From positions 1-12,443 of the forward strand of contig JBNKBE010000041.1 of assembly GCA_050287085.1 (NCBI GenBank): a stretch of 12,443 nucleotides of DNA, given 5' to 3'. A program made the position numbers and the translations under genes. The notes beneath the pieces are model-generated. The model was not told the DNA's origin, did no database searches, and was given only the letters and a program-made list of their open reading frames with translations. Below, in pieces: positions 3,253 through 12,443 of this stretch. Position 1 is the first letter of the stretch, and every line of letters starts with the position of its first letter. The DNA comes from Polyangiaceae bacterium. Lineage in GTDB: Bacteria > Myxococcota_A > Polyangia > Polyangiales > Polyangiaceae.

Positions 3253-4449
3253 ATGCGTCTGCTCTTGCTAAGCAAGTTTGGGTCGGCTCGCGGCGGGGCA
3301 GAGCGATGCTTCAGGGATCAGGTTCGTTGGTTCAGAGAAACCGGCCATCCGGTGGCGGTGGTCACGCAAACTGGTCCTAGCGAGGAAGATCCACCCGGCA
3401 CGCGCTTCGACGTACGACCGGTCGACTTTCGTTCGACGTTGCGCGAGGGAGTCGTGGGTGTCGAACGCATGTTCTGGTCCTCCGAGGTCGCTCGAGCCGT
3501 GCAACGAGCAGTTGCCACCTTTCGCCCGCACGCGGCGATCGTGCACAACACCTATCACCATCTGGGCCCAGCGATTCCGCGCATGCTCCGTCGACTCAAT
3601 GTTCCGACACTGATGTTCGTACACGACCACAAGCCGGTCTGTCCGGCGTATTCCGCGTGGCGAGCCGGGCGTGTCTGTCGCGAATGCAACGGGAGGCGCT
3701 TCTATCGGGCTGCTTTGCATGCATGCGGTGGTTCGACAGCCCACGGAGTTCTGCTTGCGGCCGAGTCCTACTGGCAGCACTCGATGCTCAGGACCTACGA
3801 CGACATCGAAGAGTATGTCGTGCCAAGCCACTACATGGCTGCTGCTTTGGCCGAAGGCGGTCTGAGGGGGAAAGTGAGCGTTGTTCGCAACGCCGTTGAG
3901 CCGATCTCGGGCGCACCCAATCGCGATGGTTTCGCTGTAGGGTTTTATGGTCGTCTTACCCCCGAAAAGGGTGTGGACACGCTTCTGGATGCAGCAAAGC
4001 TGTTGCCGGAGGCCACGTTTCGCATCGCGGGAGAGGGGCCGGCGAGGTTGAGCCTCCAGGAGCAGACGCGGCGCTTGCAACTCCGCAATGTCGAGTTTGT
4101 TGGCGACCCTGGACCAGATGGGCTGTCCGCAGAGTTTGGAAGGTGGCACGTCTCCGTCGTTCCGTCCGTTTCCCCAGAAAACTGTCCGTACGCCGTCTTG
4201 GACGCGTTCCGGTTTGGTGTCCCAGTAGTGGGAACCGACGACGCTGGCATTCGAGAGCTGGTGAGCGACCGCGGCTTGTTATTTCCACGCGGGGACCATC
4301 GGTCGCTGGCCGCGAGCATTCGTTTGCTCTTACAGGACTCGAGCGTGCATGAGCGGTGCGCGAGGCGCGGCTTGGAATTGGTCGACATGGAATGCCGACC
4401 AGAGACCCACATCAAACGCGTGCTGGAGCTGCTCCAAGCCAGGCTTTGA
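3253..4449 (+). CDS. GT4 (GT-B) glycosyltransferase with a Cys-rich insert
   Basis: GGAER, HDHKPVCP...CREC...C, VVPSHYM, VVRNAV, FYGRLTPEKGV, IAGEGP and PSVSPENCPYAVLDA (E-x7-D variant), GVPVVGT. Confidence 0.92.
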   Translation: MRLLLLSKFGSARGGAERCFRDQVRWFRETGHPVAVVTQTGPSEEDPPGTRFDVRPVDFRSTLREGVVGVERMFWSSEVARAVQRAVATFRPHAAIVHNTYHHLGPAIPRMLRRLNVPTLMFVHDHKPVCPAYSAWRAGRVCRECNGRRFYRAALHACGGSTAHGVLLAAESYWQHSMLRTYDDIEEYVVPSHYMAAALAEGGLRGKVSVVRNAVEPISGAPNRDGFAVGFYGRLTPEKGVDTLLDAAKLLPEATFRIAGEGPARLSLQEQTRRLQLRNVEFVGDPGPDGLSAEFGRWHVSVVPSVSPENCPYAVLDAFRFGVPVVGTDDAGIRELVSDRGLLFPRGDHRSLAASIRLLLQDSSVHERCARRGLELVDMECRPETHIKRVLELLQARL

Positions 4450-5542
4450 CTCGCCCGGCGACTTTGCTCAACACTTCTCGTTCCACTCGCGCGCCTGGCG
4501 GTAAATCCCAGCTACACCTCATGAAGTCAGGGAACCCCGCTAGCCGAGTGGACAATCGCCGTCCCGCGCTCAGGCGTGCGTAGTGGCAGAGGTGTCGCGG
4601 CATCAACCCCAGCAGCTGACTGTACCTGGTTGTACAGACATACTCCAACCGCTCCCCCACACCGACGGCGGTGCTCTGAAGCAGCTCAAGTACGTTGTCC
4701 GGAATTGGCTGCGCTAGGCGAGCGGCGAGATACTCGAGGGCAATCCGTGAGGTCAGGCACAGGCGGTGTCGCTGCGCGATACAGACGAATCGGTCCCAGT
4801 CTATGGAAGAAGCGCGCTCCAAGACGGTGCTAGCGTCGACGAGCCAGCGTACTGGAGACACGTGGGAAAAGGCGACGCCGTGGACGACGGTATGGAAGAG
4901 CTGCTCTGCTGGGGCCAGCACGCGGCTGCGCACGCCTTCGCAATGGGCCTCGAGAGCGGTATCCCAGGCCCAGTCCTCGTCCACACTGCAACTCTGGAGC
5001 AAAGGGCGCCAGTGGAGATCGATCTCGAGCGTACTCCGCTTGAACGGCGAGCTATGACGAACCAAAAGAAGCTGCTCGTCCCATGGGGAGTGAGGCGCGA
5101 AGCCGTTTGCGCACAGCAGTTCGGCGCCCGCCTTCGCCTGATCGGCTCTCACCAAGATGTCGACGTCGCTCATGGGCCTCAGGCCCGGTGTGCTCGCGTA
5201 GTGGCATTCCAGAGCTGCGCCCTTCAATAGCAATGTGGATATGCCAGCCTGTTCGAGTAGCTCTACGACCGCTGCTGCGCTCTTGAGCCGCTGCCGCGTA
5301 TGGACCCAGGCATGTTTTCTGAGTCCCGCAAGCCGCCCATTCTGCGGATAGGTCAGACCTTGTCGTGAGAGGTTGGCGTGGACGGCGGGGAGCAGGCGGT
5401 GACAGCCCGGACCGATGGCGTCCAGCGGGTTTTGGCTTATCCATCCTTCAAAGGCCACGGCCGCGCGCGCGTCCGGTAGGATTGCCGCACGAAGTAGCAG
5501 TAGCTCATCTGCGGTCGGCCACGAGGTTGCGACGGATCTCAT
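4412..5542 (-). CDS. Nucleotidyltransferase family protein (NTP_transf_5-like)
   Basis: LLLKGAAL...Y....LRPMSDVDILV (DxD), EIDLHW and H...HG......RWLVD. ATGA overlap with the upstream GT2; 38-nt convergent overlap with the plus-strand GT4. Confidence 0.88.
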   Translation of the reverse strand: MRSVATSWPTADELLLLRAAILPDARAAVAFEGWISQNPLDAIGPGCHRLLPAVHANLSRQGLTYPQNGRLAGLRKHAWVHTRQRLKSAAAVVELLEQAGISTLLLKGAALECHYASTPGLRPMSDVDILVRADQAKAGAELLCANGFAPHSPWDEQLLLVRHSSPFKRSTLEIDLHWRPLLQSCSVDEDWAWDTALEAHCEGVRSRVLAPAEQLFHTVVHGVAFSHVSPVRWLVDASTVLERASSIDWDRFVCIAQRHRLCLTSRIALEYLAARLAQPIPDNVLELLQSTAVGVGERLEYVCTTRYSQLLGLMPRHLCHYARLSAGRRLSTRLAGFPDFMRCSWDLPPGARVEREVLSKVAGRVKAWLGAAPARV

Positions 5543-6201
5543 CGGGGACCCATTCGCTTGAGTTCAAGACTTCGCTTGGCGACCCGAAAGTAGTCTCCGC
5601 GACGCATCGACTGTAACCGCCCGAGGTTGTTGGCATGGATTCGCCGCTCCAAACACACCTGGTCAATTACCGTCTCTTGCATGCCTAGTTCGCGACAGCG
5701 GACCAGAAAGTCCATGAAGTCTCCCAGATGGAGGGTGGCGTCGAAACGCCCGACGCGTTCAAAACTCGAGCGCCGCATCAGCATCGTTCCGGGGAGGCGC
5801 CCGGGGCGAGGTGGGCCCAGTGTTTGGAAGGTCGGGGTGTCCTGAAACTCTTGTACCCATCCGTAGACGGCGTCGACGTGTGGTGACGCGTCCATCGCGG
5901 CAAGCTGCGCCTCGAGTTTGCCGGGAGTCCAATGATCATCGGCGTCTAGGCCCGCCACGAACTCCCCACGAGCCAAGGCGTAGCCCTCGTTCCGCGCCGC
6001 CGCTGCACCCCGATGGGGTACGCGCACCACCCTGACCGGGAACTTGGCGGCCACTGACCGAGTTCGGTCCGTCGACCCGTCATCTACGACGATGGTCTCG
6101 ATGTTAGGGATCTGCCTCTCGAGGATGCTGACGAGAGCTTCCTCCAAGTACAGCTCTGCGTTGTAGGCAGGAACCACGACGGTGACCAACGGTTGGCTCA
6201 T
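5539..6201 (-). CDS. GT2 (GT-A) single-domain glycosyltransferase, 220 aa
   Basis: LVTVVVPAYNAE, VVDDGSTDRT, AARNEG, LDADDHW and RRIHANN. ATGA overlaps at both ends. Confidence 0.93.
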   Translation of the reverse strand: MSQPLVTVVVPAYNAELYLEEALVSILERQIPNIETIVVDDGSTDRTRSVAAKFPVRVVRVPHRGAAAARNEGYALARGEFVAGLDADDHWTPGKLEAQLAAMDASPHVDAVYGWVQEFQDTPTFQTLGPPRPGRLPGTMLMRRSSFERVGRFDATLHLGDFMDFLVRCRELGMQETVIDQVCLERRIHANNLGRLQSMRRGDYFRVAKRSLELKRMGPR

Positions 6202-6866
6202 GTCGCCCGCCTCCGCTGCAACGAACGGTGCAGTGCGTCAAACATGCCGAGCTCAGCGACGCTTTTGCCTTTGGTCATGTTTTCTTCGTGCAGGCGATAC
6301 TGCAGAAAGACTGCTGGGTGGCGTCGCAGCTTGGCGCCCCGCTGTCGCAGTCGAGCGATGAAGTCGAGATCTTCGCTGCTTGCGAGCTGCTCGTCGAAGT
6401 AACCGTCTTGTTCAACGACGCCGCGTCGGAAAACGAAAGAACCCAGGTTGACCCGATAGTGAGGTGTCACGAGATGAGGTTGAATGTGACCGGGACCGGC
6501 TAGCGCAAGACGAACGCGTCCTTGCACGATCTCGAGCGCCTGGTCCTGCTCCAACTCCGAGCAAGCGTGCCGAAGTGCCTCTGGTTCCCAAAGGTCGTCA
6601 ACATCGAGAAAGGCGATTCCTTCGCCAGTGGCGGCGTTCAATCCCGTGTTTCTTGCCGATGCTGGTCCGCGCCGAGGCTGGTGTAACAGGCTCACTTCCA
6701 GCATTGGATACCGCGGCAGTTGCTCAATCGCGGCGGAAGTCCCGTCGGTACTTCCGTCATCCACGAAGATGAGCTGTCGAACTTGGGCTTGGGACCGCAC
6801 CGTCGATACGCACGAATCTATGAAACGCGCCCCATTGTGGACTGGAACGATCACGGATAACCTCAT
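6198..6866 (-). CDS. GT2 (GT-A) single-domain glycosyltransferase, 222 aa
   Basis: MRLSVIVPVHNG, VDDGSTDGT, ARNTGL, FLDVDDLW, FDEQLASSEDLDF and YRLHEEN. ATG 6866 overlaps the kinase TGA (ATGA). Confidence 0.93.
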   Translation of the reverse strand: MRLSVIVPVHNGARFIDSCVSTVRSQAQVRQLIFVDDGSTDGTSAAIEQLPRYPMLEVSLLHQPRRGPASARNTGLNAATGEGIAFLDVDDLWEPEALRHACSELEQDQALEIVQGRVRLALAGPGHIQPHLVTPHYRVNLGSFVFRRGVVEQDGYFDEQLASSEDLDFIARLRQRGAKLRRHPAVFLQYRLHEENMTKGKSVAELGMFDALHRSLQRRRAT

Positions 6867-7921
6867 CGCGCCCCGCCTACGAGCGACTCCAGCAGCTCGC
6901 AAAGGACGGCCGCGCTGCCTGGCGCGTTGACCGTGTAACATCGGGTGTGTCGGACGAGTTGCGCGCAGAAGCTGAAACTCGACGCGCCGAGGCCGGACGT
7001 CTGAAAAATCGAGCTGGGCGCGAGCGCGCGAAGAAGCATGGCTTTGCTACAGGGGCTGACGCCCGCCGTGCCTTCGATTCGGGTGGGCAGGACGAGCCCG
7101 ACCACTGGTGCGCAACGGGCCGATCCAGCCACACTCGGGAATCTGAGGATGACCTTGTTGTCCTGCGGGCGCGGAGGCTCTTGGGCTAGCGCTGTGAGGT
7201 CTGGGAGGAAGCGTCGCAAGTGATTCAGTTCGAGCTTGGCGGTGTTGTAAACGCCCCAGACCACGGGCGGCTTCCCGGGTGGCAACTGCACGATGCAATT
7301 GTCGTCACCGAGGAATTGAAGCGATCCTGCTGCACTCAGCGCAGCGCTGCTCTTGCCACTGCCCCCGGCGCCGACCAACAGCACGGCGCCTCGCGGGCCA
7401 GCGACCGCTCCGACGTGTAACGATTCAGCGCTCCACTCTCGGACGGCCCACGCGATTAACGTTCGCAGCGGGGCCGCCCGCTCGTAGTTGGGCAGCGTCT
7501 CCAACGAACGAGCCCAATAGTGGCCCGAGCGCTTTGTACTGTCGTATGCCGACAAGGTGTGGGCGTCCAGGTTGTACGCGGTGCTATAGCGGTCCTCATT
7601 GAAGCCGCGAATTTCCCCGCGGGGACCGATGTCGCTGCTGGACCAGGGTGAATGCATGTCGCCTAGCGGCGCGCGGTTTCCCCAAACGAAAATGTTGGCG
7701 TCCGGCGCTGCTGCAGAAGCACGCTCGATCGACCAAAAGGAAGACGTCAACAGCTCGGCAATTGACGCGTCTGCGAAGGTCAGTCGTATCCGGCGTTTGC
7801 AAATGACCAGGTCGGCTTGGTGCGCTGCGCTGTGGAGCTGCTGCTGCCTCGACGCTTCCAAGTCAGCGAAGAAGCGGGGACAGTCCGGCCGACATGGGAT
7901 CGCGTCCGCGACAGAGGCCAT
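6863..7921 (-). CDS. HPr kinase-related (HprK-like) P-loop serine kinase, about 352 aa
   Basis: LHVGAV (His motif), Walker A GAGGSGKS and FLGDDNC (Asp pair) appear in HprK order. ATG 7921 lies 7 nt past the PqqD stop; the track's 8020 start would overlap PqqD by about 90 nt. Confidence 0.85.
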   Translation of the reverse strand: MASVADAIPCRPDCPRFFADLEASRQQQLHSAAHQADLVICKRRIRLTFADASIAELLTSSFWSIERASAAAPDANIFVWGNRAPLGDMHSPWSSSDIGPRGEIRGFNEDRYSTAYNLDAHTLSAYDSTKRSGHYWARSLETLPNYERAAPLRTLIAWAVREWSAESLHVGAVAGPRGAVLLVGAGGSGKSSAALSAAGSLQFLGDDNCIVQLPPGKPPVVWGVYNTAKLELNHLRRFLPDLTALAQEPPRPQDNKVILRFPSVAGSARCAPVVGLVLPTRIEGTAGVSPCSKAMLLRALAPSSIFQTSGLGASSFSFCAQLVRHTRCYTVNAPGSAAVLCELLESLVGGAR

Positions 7922-7928
7922 GGACAGC

Positions 7929-8402
7929 CTACTCTGTTGAAGCGGCCGGTCGCTGGTGGGGCCACCCTCGGTCGTCCACGTCGTGGACGGGATCCAAAGC
8001 GAGGTAGTCTTGCATGTCATCTAACGTCTCGAGGATCGGAGGTGCGAAGTCCGACTCGGGCCCCACTGACACTGCGTCCTCCTCTGGGGTGCCTTCCCAA
8101 CACGTGATGAGCTCTTGTTCCAACAGCGAATGGATGAACGCTTGGATGTCACTCGTTGCGTCCGGGACGAACGCCGCGCAGATTCGTTCGACGCTGAGCC
8201 CGCGATCCAGCCACTCCCAGATTTGCACCCCACAGCCCTGAACCCCGTGGTAGCGCCCCGTCGCAAAGTTGATGATGACAAGCTCGCCGTCGATCAGCTG
8301 CTCCGACACCTGCGGTCTGGCGATCCGGAATTGACCGTCAAGACGCCTTTGTCGACCGACATCCGAGTTGCATGCTCGATCTTCTGAGACCTCGACCATC
8401 AC
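7929..8402 (-). CDS. PqqD-family / RiPP recognition element (RRE) protein with acidic linker and C-terminal peptide tail
   Basis: Residues about 25-100 fit the RRE pattern: VSEQLIDGELVIINFATGRYHGV (three strands), GVQIWEWL, SVERICAAF and DIQAFIHSLLEQELI (three helices). The tail is FAPPILETLDDMQDYLALDPVHDVDDRGWP.... The start is GTG 8402 or ATG 8399 and is uncertain. Confidence 0.85.
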   Translation of the reverse strand: MMVEVSEDRACNSDVGRQRRLDGQFRIARPQVSEQLIDGELVIINFATGRYHGVQGCGVQIWEWLDRGLSVERICAAFVPDATSDIQAFIHSLLEQELITCWEGTPEEDAVSVGPESDFAPPILETLDDMQDYLALDPVHDVDDRGWPHQRPAASTE

Positions 8403-8681: not shown

Positions 8682-11069
8682 ATGAAGCGTCGGGGGTGTT
8701 CATCGTCCAGTCATCGAGGCGCGGTGTTGCTTCTCGTGGCGGTGTCCAGCTTGGGGCTTCTGGCGCGCACCGTAGGGGTTTGGCGGGTCGTATTCGACGG
8801 CGACGTCGTGCGGCTGCTGGGCGCCGACTCGTACTATCACTTGCGCCAGGCCCTGTTCTGTGTGCGGCATTTCCCCGAAGTCCAACGTTTTGATACCGGG
8901 ACAAACTTTCCGCTTGGTGAAAACAACCACACTGCAGGGCTCTACGATTGGTTCAGCGGTTTCGTTGCGTTGACGCTCGGTGCTCGCGGTGCCCCGGATG
9001 AAGCGATCGTGCCGTGGGTGCTGTCACTCTCTGGCCCCATATTTGCCATGCTGGCTTTCGCTGGTCTGCTCCTGCTGGCAAACCGGGTTTTCGGGTATCG
9101 CTCTTCCGTTTGCACGAGCCTGCTTCTCGTTGCCTATCCCGGCGAGTTTCTGGAAAAATCTAGTCTTGGGTTCGCAGATCACCATGTGCTCGAAGTCTGT
9201 TGCGTGGTGTGGGGCCTGCAGGCTTGGACGAGGCTTTCACGCCGAACGGGGGCAACGGGAGCCTGGCGTCCTGCTGTGTTGGCAGCACTCCCTTGGTGGC
9301 TGCTCGCGTTGAGTTGGAATGGAGCGCCGCTCTATCTTGCAATCTTGCTGGGATCGGTGGGCGCCTCAGCCGTTTGGCGCGCGGACGCGGACGCGGACGC
9401 GGACGCGGCAGCGCGAAGGGCATTGCTGGCAAGTGCTAGTCTCGCCCTCGGCCTTGGGACCCTCCTACTGCTCCCCGGTGCCGTGCCGTGGGTTGAAACC
9501 CATTGCTTCTCCGTCCTCATCTCACTGGGATTAGCCCTTTGGGTTTTGACGTGGCCGCGCCTCGCCCCGCTGCTGCCGCGCAGCTCCTTTGCTCGATGGT
9601 CCTTGATGGGCGGTCTTGGCGGCGCTGCGTTGCTAGGCCTGTCCTACTCAGCCCCCGAAGCGTTCGCCCTCGCTTTTTTGCCCAAGACAGCGCTGGTGGC
9701 TGAACAAGCGAGCCCCACTTTACTCGAAATTTGGGGACTGCTCGGACCTTCCCCGGTGCTGGCGCTGTGGGCGTTTGCGGGCTCCTTGGCGGCAAATCCC
9801 AACCGGCACGCAGAGGCCCGGGTGTTCGTGTGTGTGTTCGCACTTGCGGTCGTGCTGCTTTGGGTCGTCACGGGGGACTATGGGTATCTTGCCGCGGTAT
9901 TGGTCGCGCTCCTTGGGGGCAAGGGGCTGAGCTCGATCGTTGCTGCCGTGAGCCAACGCGCTCCACGTCTTGCGCCGATTCGCAACCAAGCGCTGGCCTT
10001 GCCGGTGATGTTGGGTGCGTTCGCGCCCCTTGTAGAGCCATGTTTCCTAGATCCCGCTGCGGCGAAAGCCATGCTGATGGTGGACGACGCGTGGGCCCAG
10101 GCCCTGCGCTGGGTCGAGAGCAACAACCCTGGGCCGAACCTGGACACGCTCAGCGAAGCGAAACCCGGTGCCGATTTCGACTATTCCGCGGGACCGCCTG
10201 GGATCCTGAGCATGTGGGACTACGGCAACGCGGTCGCCGCTCTTGCGCGCCGGCCTGTGGTGGCGAGCCAAAGGACATCGTGGCTCGCCTCGGATGTGTT
10301 CCTCGCCACGTCGTCCGCGGAAGCGTTGCGATTGCTGGCCCACCGCGCCAGCCCTGGGGAGTCGGTGAGTCACGTAATAGTGGACTCGCGGACGATGACC
10401 ACCGGATTCGTCGGCCTCCTGGGAATCGCGCATCGGAGCTCAAATGAGTTCGTCTCGATCTCGCAAGACGGGCGACCCCGCTTCGATGAGCGCTTCCACC
10501 GCACACTTGGAGCACTGCTACTGGAGCGCGGGGGATCGACGGTGGGCAGGTTTCGTTTGGTCTACGACTCGCCCCAGCAAGACTATGTCTTTCAACGGGG
10601 GTATCGATCCCAATCCGGAGAACTTCTTGTCCAGCTGTCGCGCGCGGCTGCTGGTTCACCCGGCCAGAACGTTAGCTTTTCGGAGGCCCTCGCGGCTGTG
10701 GGAGTCGAGCACAACCCGGCGACCTACGACGAGTTACTGGTACCGAGGGTCCGAGTTTTCGAGGTCGTCCCCGGCGCCGTTTTGGTGGGTCAAACCTCGC
10801 CAAAGGCGATCGTTCACGCCATTGTGGGGGTGCGCGGGCAGGGGCTGCCACGGCGTGCGATTGGGTATTCGGCTGACGCCGACGACACAGGGGCGTTCAG
10901 AATCCAGGTCGCGCAGGCGACGGGCACAACAACAAGCGATACTGTCCGTACCGATTCGTACTACCAGATCTTCGTGCAAACCGCCTCTGGCAATACGCCA
11001 TGGATGCGCGTGCGGGTTCCGTTGAGCGCCGTTCTCGAGGGGCGCGAGCTGTCACTCGCTTCGCCCTGA
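8682..11069 (+). CDS. STT3-family oligosaccharyltransferase, archaeal AglB-like
   Basis: GADSYYHLR, FDTGTNFPLG, GFADHHVLE, many hydrophobic helices, LVAE (TIXE-like), SMWDYGN (WWDYG-like), FRLVYDS and VRVFEVVPGA, followed by a beta-rich C-terminal domain as in long AglBs. Confidence 0.88.
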   Translation: MKRRGCSSSSHRGAVLLLVAVSSLGLLARTVGVWRVVFDGDVVRLLGADSYYHLRQALFCVRHFPEVQRFDTGTNFPLGENNHTAGLYDWFSGFVALTLGARGAPDEAIVPWVLSLSGPIFAMLAFAGLLLLANRVFGYRSSVCTSLLLVAYPGEFLEKSSLGFADHHVLEVCCVVWGLQAWTRLSRRTGATGAWRPAVLAALPWWLLALSWNGAPLYLAILLGSVGASAVWRADADADADAAARRALLASASLALGLGTLLLLPGAVPWVETHCFSVLISLGLALWVLTWPRLAPLLPRSSFARWSLMGGLGGAALLGLSYSAPEAFALAFLPKTALVAEQASPTLLEIWGLLGPSPVLALWAFAGSLAANPNRHAEARVFVCVFALAVVLLWVVTGDYGYLAAVLVALLGGKGLSSIVAAVSQRAPRLAPIRNQALALPVMLGAFAPLVEPCFLDPAAAKAMLMVDDAWAQALRWVESNNPGPNLDTLSEAKPGADFDYSAGPPGILSMWDYGNAVAALARRPVVASQRTSWLASDVFLATSSAEALRLLAHRASPGESVSHVIVDSRTMTTGFVGLLGIAHRSSNEFVSISQDGRPRFDERFHRTLGALLLERGGSTVGRFRLVYDSPQQDYVFQRGYRSQSGELLVQLSRAAAGSPGQNVSFSEALAAVGVEHNPATYDELLVPRVRVFEVVPGAVLVGQTSPKAIVHAIVGVRGQGLPRRAIGYSADADDTGAFRIQVAQATGTTTSDTVRTDSYYQIFVQTASGNTPWMRVRVPLSAVLEGRELSLASP
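9381..9408 (+). repeat. In-frame hexamer microsatellite (GCGGAC)x4 plus GCGG, encoding ADADADADA
   Basis: Read directly from the sequence; lies between two hydrophobic segments of the STT3 protein. Confidence 0.9.
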
Positions 11070-11110: not shown

Positions 11111-12443
11111 CTACAGCGCCGTGTTGACGGGTAGACCGAGATAGGTGCAGCCGGGCGTGAGCCGCAACGCCTGGCGCGGGTTGGGCAAATCGGTCCGATT
11201 GGCGATCCATGAAAACCAGAGTTCTCCGTGGGACTCGCTCAGTTCCCCAAAATCGGTCGACGAAAATTCGTCCACCGGTGGTGCGTCCAAGAATAGCGAC
11301 GCGGGCTCGAACGCCGATCCGTCAAAAGTCATGACCTTGGCACCGAAGGGGTAAAGCAATCCAAGATGCAACTCCCCGTCCTCTGTCATGAGGAGTTGCC
11401 GCCCCGTGGCGACCGGGCTCGTGCCGTCATGGAGGATGTCAAACTCTGGGATGACCTCCGTTATTTCGCCCTCGGCGGAGACATGCGCCAGGGTTTGAAA
11501 GGGGCCGCCAAGAAAGCTTGCGCGCTGACGGTCCTCGAGGACCCAGACCCCGCCGTCATCGTCTACGGCTGCCGTCGACGCCAAAATGGGGAATTCATCG
11601 TCATCGATGGTCAGGCTCAGGAATCCGTCTTCCGGTACCCATGCGAGTGGAGCCCCGTCTGTATCGTGGCCGGTGAGCAGTGTCGCGTTGACCGCAGTCG
11701 TGATCCCGCTTCGCGGATTCGTGGAGATCGAGTACCCCAGGGGTCCTCCTAGGCCCGCTTCGCCGAAGTAGGTCATGCGTTGGAGCAACTCCCCATCGGT
11801 GCTCACGCGCATGCTGAATACGCCTTCGTCGTATGCATGCAGGGCAAAGGCCTCGCCGTCCCACTGCACGTCGGTGAGCACGGCAGTTGCCGGTACGACG
11901 CCGGGGTAGACCGCCACCTCGATCGCCGCTTCGGGATCATCGACGTCGCCGACGAGTGCGGCAATGGGGACCGTTCGCGCTTCCTCGTCGAACCACGAGT
12001 AGGCGATGATGAATCGCCCGTCAGGAGAAATGGCCGCCCCCTCCACGCGTTGATCTGCTGCGTCGACGTGTGCAGGGAAGACGTCGAGCTCTCGTTCCAC
12101 CATTTCACCAGTCTCTAGGGAGAACGTCTGGATCAGCGGGTACAGCCGGTGCCAAGAGGTCCGGGATGAGCCTTCGGGAATGGGGAGCACGTACGCGACC
12201 GCGGAGACCAGATGTAGGGAGTCTCTGCTGCGCATCGTCCCCCCCGGCACCCGGCTGAACGCCAACCAGCTTCGGCGTGGGTCCCCGTTTTTGGGGGGCG
12301 GCGCTGCAAATCGAGCGCAGTCGCCGTCCAGCATGGCGGTCGGATACGAGGCGTCCGTTGCGTCATCGTCCGTTGCGTCATCGTCCGTTGCGTCATCGTC
12401 CGTTGCGTCATCGTCCGTTGCGTCATCGTCCGTTGCGTCATCG
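11111..12443 (-). CDS. Hypothetical acidic, beta-rich (possibly propeller-like) protein with Asp/Thr-rich N-terminal linker; 5' end outside the window; probably exported
   Basis: The 11111..12334 frame stays open to the window edge and reads (DDATD)x6-ASYPTA-MLDGDC.... Blade-like segments include AAISPDGRFIIAY, DVQWDGEAFAL and VDDDGGVWV. Confidence 0.75.
   Translation of the reverse strand, partial: DDATDDDATDDDATDDDATDDDATDDDATDASYPTAMLDGDCARFAAPPPKNGDPRRSWLAFSRVPGGTMRSRDSLHLVSAVAYVLPIPEGSSRTSWHRLYPLIQTFSLETGEMVERELDVFPAHVDAADQRVEGAAISPDGRFIIAYSWFDEEARTVPIAALVGDVDDPEAAIEVAVYPGVVPATAVLTDVQWDGEAFALHAYDEGVFSMRVSTDGELLQRMTYFGEAGLGGPLGYSISTNPRSGITTAVNATLLTGHDTDGAPLAWVPEDGFLSLTIDDDEFPILASTAAVDDDGGVWVLEDRQRASFLGGPFQTLAHVSAEGEITEVIPEFDILHDGTSPVATGRQLLMTEDGELHLGLLYPFGAKVMTFDGSAFEPASLFLDAPPVDEFSSTDFGELSESHGELWFSWIANRTDLPNPRQALRLTPGCTYLGLPVNTAL
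12352..12443. repeat. Perfect 15-bp tandem repeat CGTCCGTTGCGTCAT, at least 6 copies, running off the edge
   Basis: Six identical units span 12352-12441, followed by CG. They encode DDATD on the minus strand in frame with the 11111 gene. Confidence 0.95.

Follow-up and report, generated by a model that had tools for sequence, protein, structure and literature searches.

An RRE that very probably carries its own leader-like segment in cis, encoded beside an HprK/PEPCK-fold kinase and two glycosyltransferases

Results

Architecture of the RRE-leader-tail protein and its operon

In a 12,443-nt stretch of DNA from a Polyangiaceae bacterium (the window), a 157-aa protein comprises an RRE that is followed, within one ORF, by a leader-like segment and a strongly conserved tail. 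This arrangement is a real feature that lies far beyond chance, and the (F/Y)xxPxL segment very probably binds in cis to the RRE of the same chain. We favor the reading, at a rough probability of 0.48, that the self-loaded RRE would unite chaperone, leader and acceptor in one chain and serve as a carrier or primer that is modified in place at Asp137. The RRE-tail gene stands first in a tight operon found in many phyla, followed by the genes for a kinase, two small GT2 glycosyltransferases and an NTP_transf_5 protein, which is taken as PsmN/LppN-like by annotation and context. The features are:

7929..8402 (-): RRE-leader-tail protein, 157 aa; ORF with uncertain start, relatives align from about residue 21
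8100..8333 (-): RRE (PqqD/lasso B1 fold), residues 24-101, assigned by Pfam PF05402, solved relatives and fold comparison
8150-8148 (-): Asp85, the RRE position matching LppB D70 in the alignment
8049..8099 (-): variable linker, residues 102-118; 12-31 aa in the family, median 23
8001..8048 (-): cis leader-like segment, residues 119-134, (F/Y)xxPxL strand followed by DMQDxL helix
7959..8000 (-): conserved disordered tail, residues 135-148, with Asp137-Pro138 and the clade-specific H140 and GWP
7994-7992 (-): Asp137 codon
6863..7921 (-): HprK/PEPCK-fold kinase, His, P-loop and DD motifs intact
6198..6860 (-): small GT2 glycosyltransferase 1
5539..6201 (-): small GT2 glycosyltransferase 2
4412..5542 (-): NTP_transf_5 (PF14907) nucleotidyltransferase-like protein with SDVD motif

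Translation of positions 7929-8051 on the minus strand yields D-FAPPIL-ETL-DDMQDYLALDPVHDVDDRGWP-HQRPAASTE-stop, i.e. the C-terminus of the 157-aa ORF. Pfam detected PqqD at residues 40-99 (E 7.6e-8), and TbiB1 is the closest solved sequence to the RRE (E 2.6e-19). The RRE model superimposes on 5v1v with a VIA Z of 11.3 and an rmsd of 2.0 over 80 residues. It displays the three-strand, three-helix winged-helix fold of lasso B1-type RRE/PqqD proteins, and in structure comparison matches TbiB1 and TfuB1 as found in their leader complexes.

Conservation of the tail and its linkage to the RRE

Conservation was assessed in 130 single-RRE relatives out of 151 proteins, all representing clusters at 50% identity and retrieved with a profile that included the tail. 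The mean frequency of the top residue was 0.51 in the RRE, 0.58 in the leader-like segment (119-128) and 0.82 in the tail (129-148), as compared to 0.21 in the linker and 0.22 after GWP. Residues D137, P138, G146 and P148 were present in 130/130 relatives and P122, D129, H140 and W147 in 129/130. The comparison of tail with linker that the initial annotation had proposed as a check is thereby decided for the tail. Its statement that the tail recurs in other uncharacterised PqqD proteins was likewise borne out, as a large family was recovered by a tail-seeded scan of GTDB genomes and a profile search. Third codon positions were free to vary in 141 tails, so that selection acts on the protein. 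These freely varying synonymous codons ruled out a cause at the DNA or RNA level, such as overlap with the kinase frame or an RBS.

Since tail-seeded searches risk selection bias, loci picked through the kinase were used as a tail-blind test. This sample comprised 79 metagenome loci selected by kinase alignment, the kinase seeds being drawn from tail-selected loci. An RRE was present in 64 of the 79 loci, and in 63 of these 64 the tail was encoded in the same ORF. In the remaining one, which lies at a contig edge, the tail is encoded in a neighbouring frame, and tail-less RRE loci amounted to 0/64. Two loci carried the tail with no visible RRE, and 13 carried neither, 10 of which are cut off near the kinase start. 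In at least three kinase-picked loci (L147, L148, L165) more than 1.2 kb is available upstream of the kinase, and this DNA contained no RRE.

Two candidates for a split RRE/peptide form were dismissed: locus L106 represents a single frameshifted gene, and the sequence next to the tail in L189 is unrelated, which may reflect a chimeric assembly. A search of short proteins for such a form, which has low sensitivity, returned nothing. One locus, from the unpublished genome G562, entered none of the analyses.

Probable cis binding of the leader-like segment

The initial annotation had suggested that the leader is encoded in cis with its RRE. Structure prediction, covariation and the architecture of tandem proteins support this suggestion. 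In the AF2 model (123 sequences), a strand is formed by residues 123-127, whose block has a pLDDT of 92, and a helix by residues 130-135; pLDDT is 62-70 over the remainder of the tail. The corresponding strand block in a natural kinase fusion has a pLDDT of 94. The model agrees with the suggestion that FAPPIL adds an extra strand to the RRE, the pairing partner of this strand being inferred.

The motif Tyr is paired with Asp at RRE position 85 in 68/90 units, compared to 5/192 units for the motif Phe; 10/320 units with no Asp/Glu at 137, all of them second or third repeats of multi-RRE proteins, had been dropped. Among 78 RRE columns, position 85 gave the top covariation signal (p 1e-40; next other column 4e-6). 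This column aligns with D70 of LppB; in the LPP crystal structure, D70 forms a hydrogen bond with the leader Tyr, according to the available text of PMC13381572. The RRE tree requires at least 41 switches between Tyr and Phe. In the 8 supported independent pairs, the partner residue scored 5.1 for the same and 0.0 for the opposite direction; the sign test yielded a median p of 0.0625, above 0.05, eight pairs being underpowered and their direction consistent. Among the five Phe+Asp exceptions is the RRE protein of the window itself.

In proteins with 2-3 tandem RREs, the motif is mostly repeated after each RRE, and a single full tail is present. Tandem RREs (2-3 units) and RRE-tail-(RRE)-RRE-kinase fusions were observed in P0003, P0025, P0014, P0110, L073, L166, L180, L185, L187, L089 and L104. 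Computationally, the family is thus predicted to share the lasso B1-type arrangement, in which a (Y/W/F)xxPxL leader occupies the cleft between strand and helix.

Predicted docking of the RRE and leader helix on the kinase

The likely start codon of the kinase gene is the ATG at 7921, 7 nt past the RRE stop. By sequence, HPr kinases are the best solved relatives (E 7e-8), while the best fold match of the model is the two-lobed small-molecule enzyme PEPCK (E 1.2e-8, 412 columns). A kinase was detected in 75 of 80 tail-selected loci (79 tail-seeded loci plus locus L002) and is adjacent or fused in 67 of the 80. Ten RRE-kinase fusion ORFs, about 600-850 aa long, have the tail in an internal position, with Asp-Pro-x-His and Trp-Pro kept. 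A degenerate copy of the DMxDL helix, devoid of Asp-Pro-His, is kept in the last repeat just before the kinase.

The complex of the RRE protein and the kinase of the window was modelled using ESMFold2 and scored 0.86, compared to 0.00 for the best of 3 controls. This score reflects model confidence rather than a measurement, and the mark, reached by 116/157 solved and 2/215 mismatched pairs, is a rough guide here (own alignments, ligands). Contacts agreed between runs by at least 44%, and the partner pLDDT was at least 73. In the modelled interface, the RRE sheet and residues 127-134 face kinase helices 292-324 and residues 100-101 and 185-186. Confident contacts include L127, D129, M130, Y133 and L134 as well as the kinase P-loop residues 185-186. 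The model thus supports docking of the RRE and the leader helix on the kinase.

Residues 135-148 had no confident placement on the kinase in this complex. Ordering of the tail by the kinase was not borne out in the AF2 model of the natural fusion L089, in which the tail has a pLDDT of about 50, falling below 50 at fusion residues 116-123. The earlier idea that the tail enters the kinase active site therefore holds in part: the RRE and the start of the tail are modelled on the kinase, but DPVH..GWP is not confidently placed there and has a pLDDT of ~50 in the natural fusion.

Locus content and searches for a precursor and a peptidase

GT2 matches were found in 73 of the 80 loci, NTP_transf_5 in 60 and an ABC transporter in 20. 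At least two GT2 matches were present in 61/80 loci, overlapping frames possibly being counted. Other nameable recurring genes mostly encode glycosyltransferases and epimerases, plus SGNH-like and GGDEF proteins.

A search for a separate precursor in 159 loci returned 448 candidate small ORFs, fewer than in shuffled sequence (709 and 724), with no family conserved among them. The sole recurring small-ORF family among the matches listed is antisense to the kinase gene and was discarded. The remark that no separate precursor ORF is visible in the window thus extends to a precursor family across these 159 loci. No peptidase family was detected in the window (Pfam) or among gene clusters present in at least 3 of the 80 loci, two small clusters aside. 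A peptidase domain was not found in the scanned ABC protein, nor were clusters of macrolactam cyclases or B2 proteases found in the window or the clustered loci. A hydrophobic window above 1.6 occurred in just 1/130 proteins, indicating that there is no export signal. The initial annotation had taken the tail for a core peptide. The lack of a recurring peptidase family in the 80 loci and the internal position of the tail in 10 fusion ORFs speak against this, the latter suiting a tethered carrier or docking motif better than a C-terminal core.

Candidate acceptor residue

The His, Asp and Tyr residues of the tail and a terminal Ser/Thr had been named as candidate modification sites. However, Tyr133 is poorly kept, with Leu at that position in 107/130 relatives, and the C-terminal residue is Ser/Thr in only 14/125 proteins. 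In a sister clade of 12 units, the tail ends with DMxDLLALDPP and lacks His and GWP. Conservation thus ruled out Tyr133, the terminal Ser/Thr and His140 as general sites, while Asp137 is kept. Among six sister-clade loci examined, five encode kinase and NTP_transf_5 and four the GT2 pair; the sixth has Glu in place of Asp137 and no kinase in 11 kb. Sister-clade loci L217-L222, with a DPP(M/L)P tail, stem from Gemmatimonadota- and Acidobacteriota-centred samples, and their operon is mostly the same.

Beyond the leader, Asp137-Pro138 is common to both tail clades, and Asp137 is the one side chain kept. Asp occupies the register equivalent to Ser3 of LPP in 309/320 units, a partly circular count given that locus units were pre-filtered for [DE]P[PVI]. 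The spacing from the aromatic residue to this Asp is 19 in 304/309 units. In LPP, the leader motif places the phosphorylated Ser3 at position 19, as given in the available text of PMC13381572. Position 128 is Thr/Ser in 227/320 units and Asp in the window's protein; judged by sequence, this Thr/Ser could be an acceptor in many members.

Proposed mechanism and alternatives

In the favored carrier reading, the (F/Y)xxPxL motif would fold back over the ~20-residue linker into its own RRE cleft. This step is well supported and would be the counterpart of a lasso or LPP leader occupying the RRE in trans. According to the complex model, the RRE sheet and the DMQDxL helix would then dock on the C-terminal helices of the kinase, beside the P-loop. 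The disordered tail would be presented to the kinase and phosphorylated, most likely at Asp137, which is favored because it is the sole side chain beyond the leader kept in both clades and lies 19 positions from the aromatic residue, as does LPP Ser3. By analogy with PsmN, NTP_transf_5 and the GT2 pair might put a sugar on or through the phosphate, and locus-specific glycosyltransferases would extend the glycan. The protein would then act as a primer or carrier for glycan synthesis and not as the source of a variable secreted peptide. The chemistry is modelled on LppK and PsmK/PsmN; PsmN is required for hexose on the phosphate in the psm cluster, as reported in the available part of PMC6993621.

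Several points weigh against a carrier. The register match could stem from descent from a leader, the chemistry not being conserved, and D137-P148 is not confidently placed on the kinase and has low pLDDT in the fusion model. We know of no precedent for an Asp acceptor of the HprK/PEPCK kinase fold, and acyl phosphates are labile. Moreover, characterised relatives phosphorylate Ser, and LppK rejects S3T and S3Y (PMC13381572, available text). The fuller chemical version of the carrier reading, in which an Asp-phosphate formed by the kinase on the tethered tail is converted to an Asp-linked (phospho)glycan by the PsmN-like transferase and the two GT2s, possibly with Asp-Pro cleavage, is doubtful. 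A further analogy is ITIH3, in which Asp-Pro-His motifs self-cleave and can esterify glycans according to the available text of PMC8267560. If true, an Asp-linked glycan would represent a new protein-linked glycan-priming chemistry across many bacterial phyla.

An adaptor or activator role is a serious contender, albeit on the improbable side. Here, the tethered leader would permanently fill and stabilise the RRE and switch the kinase on, the tail would never be modified, and DPxH..GWP (or DPP.P) would dock GT2 or NTP_transf_5, the real acceptor being a sugar, a lipid or another protein. The tail has no conserved Ser/Thr/Tyr, hardly varies between phyla and lies internally in kinase fusions, and Trp/Pro-rich disordered motifs are typical docking sites. 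The degenerate DMxDL helix kept before the kinase in fusions lacks Asp-Pro-His, and the kinase model fits the small-molecule enzyme PEPCK best; in addition, LppB is insoluble when the leader is absent (PMC13381572, available text). However, such a role leaves unexplained why the register of Asp137 is fixed and coincides with that of the LPP phospho-site and why both clades keep Asp-Pro when everything after it is replaced, and an alternative peptide substrate family was not found in the loci.

A true RiPP precursor fusion is unlikely; in this scenario, the tail would be modified, detached either by self-cleavage at Asp-Pro or by a protease whose gene lies elsewhere, and set free as a cofactor-like compound or small phospho-glycopeptide. 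The scenario would agree with the leader and core register shared with LPP, with the ABC transporters in 20/80 loci and with the conserved cores that occur in RRE pathways, e.g. PQQ and mycofactocin; self-cleavage and glycan esterification at Asp-Pro-His in ITIH3 (PMC8267560, available text) would fit as well. Nevertheless, the clusters present in at least 3 of 80 loci include no peptidase family, an export signal is absent by the hydrophobicity count given above, the internal tail of fusions would need two cuts, and neither L106 nor the low-sensitivity short-protein search provided a true split form. Finally, it is very improbable that the motif binds in trans in a domain-swapped oligomer or only completes the fold of a relic RRE that plays no part in substrate handling. 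Neither covariation nor monomer models can tell cis from swapped, and the 12-31-residue linker permits both, but the strongest conservation (129-148) and the modelled kinase contact would be left unexplained.

Relation to known systems

The closest parallel is the LPP system (LppA/K/B/S/D/N) of Bacillota as described in the available text of PMC13381572, which likewise combines an RRE, an HprK-like kinase and an NTP transferase with no macrolactam cyclase. Polysaccharide-locus context, a YxxP leader, the Tyr-Asp recognition pair and the Ser3 register occupied here by Asp137 are shared as well. In the 80 loci, we found the kinase in 75, the NTP transferase in 60 and no cyclase cluster. However, LPP features a discrete RRE, separate precursor genes with variable cores, an SpI-like peptidase, a Ser acceptor and an MsbA-like exporter as core gene, and is confined to Bacillota in that text. 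In the present family, the leader is fused behind the RRE (63/64 RRE loci, with no precursor family), and the tail is near-invariant with no conserved Ser, core position 3 being Asp in 309/320 units. No clustered SpI-like leader peptidase is seen in the window or in clusters of at least 3 of 80 loci, two GT2s belong to the core, and many phyla are represented. Judged by these comparisons, the cassette would work like LPP and paeninodin tailoring, but fails to qualify as LPP with respect to discrete precursor, peptidase and Ser.

Phospho-glycosylated lasso peptide systems (paeninodin PadeK; pseudomycoidin PsmK/PsmN; PMC6993621, available part) share the B1-type RRE, the HprK-like kinase and the nucleotidyltransferase. 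In contrast to these, the present family has no cluster for macrolactam synthetase (C) or B2 protease, no separate precursor and no conserved C-terminal Ser. The NCBIfam families HPr-rel-A/B and SynChlorMet (TIGR04352/04353/04355, TIGR04248/04249) also pair a PqqD-family protein with an HprK-related kinase, but the kinases score 25-50 bits versus a cut-off of 200, i.e. below the HPr-rel-A and HprK-rel-B models, and the models span the RRE part only (73-88 positions). Borosin-type enzyme-precursor fusions similarly hold the substrate peptide in cis with its handling machinery. Borosins join the core to the catalytic methyltransferase, and this core lies at the C-terminus and is set free, whereas in the present family the peptide is attached to the recognition element, with a tail that may lie internally.

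An RRE with a cis leader would explain a large class of "precursor-less" clusters, which would be lost to precursor-ORF mining. The trio of RRE, HprK kinase and NTP_transf_5 sits in polysaccharide loci. Since candidate substrate, kinase, transferase and two glycosyltransferases are encoded in one compact operon, product and role of the trio are testable with five soluble proteins. LppN was inactive in the LPP system, and its authors suspect missing partners (PMC13381572, available text).

Distribution and genomic surroundings

A profile built from the protein and one homolog matched 11,877 cluster representatives at E<=1e-3, 3,074 at 1e-10 and 140 at 1e-30; the 3,074 include an uncounted share of ordinary PqqD proteins, and details rest on the best 150 of the 11,877 matches. 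The tail-seeded scan of GTDB genomes retrieved 79 loci, which by record titles derive from Actinomycetota, Acidobacteriota, Alpha- and Betaproteobacteria, Bacteroidota, Planctomycetota, Gemmatimonadota and others. Cultured carriers include Sphingomonas rustica (L092) and Emticicia aquatica (L080). Distribution is patchy, as only 2 matches in 301 genomes of the window's phylum reach over the tail. Viral contigs gave 51 pattern matches and no relatives, and plasmids 2 weak matches to the RRE only. Some genomes possess two RRE-tail gene copies, several with their own kinase: L055 (241-660, 9992-10411), L047 and L093/L097.

The cassette thus appears to be a widespread, apparently undescribed variant of the RRE/HprK/NTP-transferase system. 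A fused RRE-leader family was not found in the literature searched; the LPP and RRE-Finder datasets may list members. Likewise, no RRE with a fused leader of this type was found in the available text of PMC13381572, PMC12710340, PMC7470986, PMC6993621, PMC8267560 and PMC10352776.

The genome of the window harbors a second RRE, kinase and NTP_transf_5 system (G000:C4, ~220-232 kb; L190:4995-17181). There, a Wzc-like protein, NTP_transf_5, a tail-less PqqD and a distant HprK-like kinase are encoded around a 1351-aa FG-GAP protein. Within the window, an archaeal-type STT3/AglB-like oligosaccharyltransferase is encoded divergently from the RRE operon (8682-11069, +). It may use glycans made by the operon; its cluster does not recur in at least 3 of 80 related loci. 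An ORF with tandem DDATD repeats (11111-12443, -) runs past the window and has no Pfam or NCBIfam matches. Further along (L191:862-7395, +; C41 12861-19394), a 2178-aa surface-type protein with VWA, HYR, RTX repeats and CBM60, with an ABC transporter encoded after it, is a possible glycosylation target. Finally, a 600-aa ORF (257-2059, -) ends in a C-terminal TylF methyltransferase, and the overlapping frame 1035-1412 encodes a GT10 fucosyltransferase-like piece, which suggests a frameshifted or nested gene.
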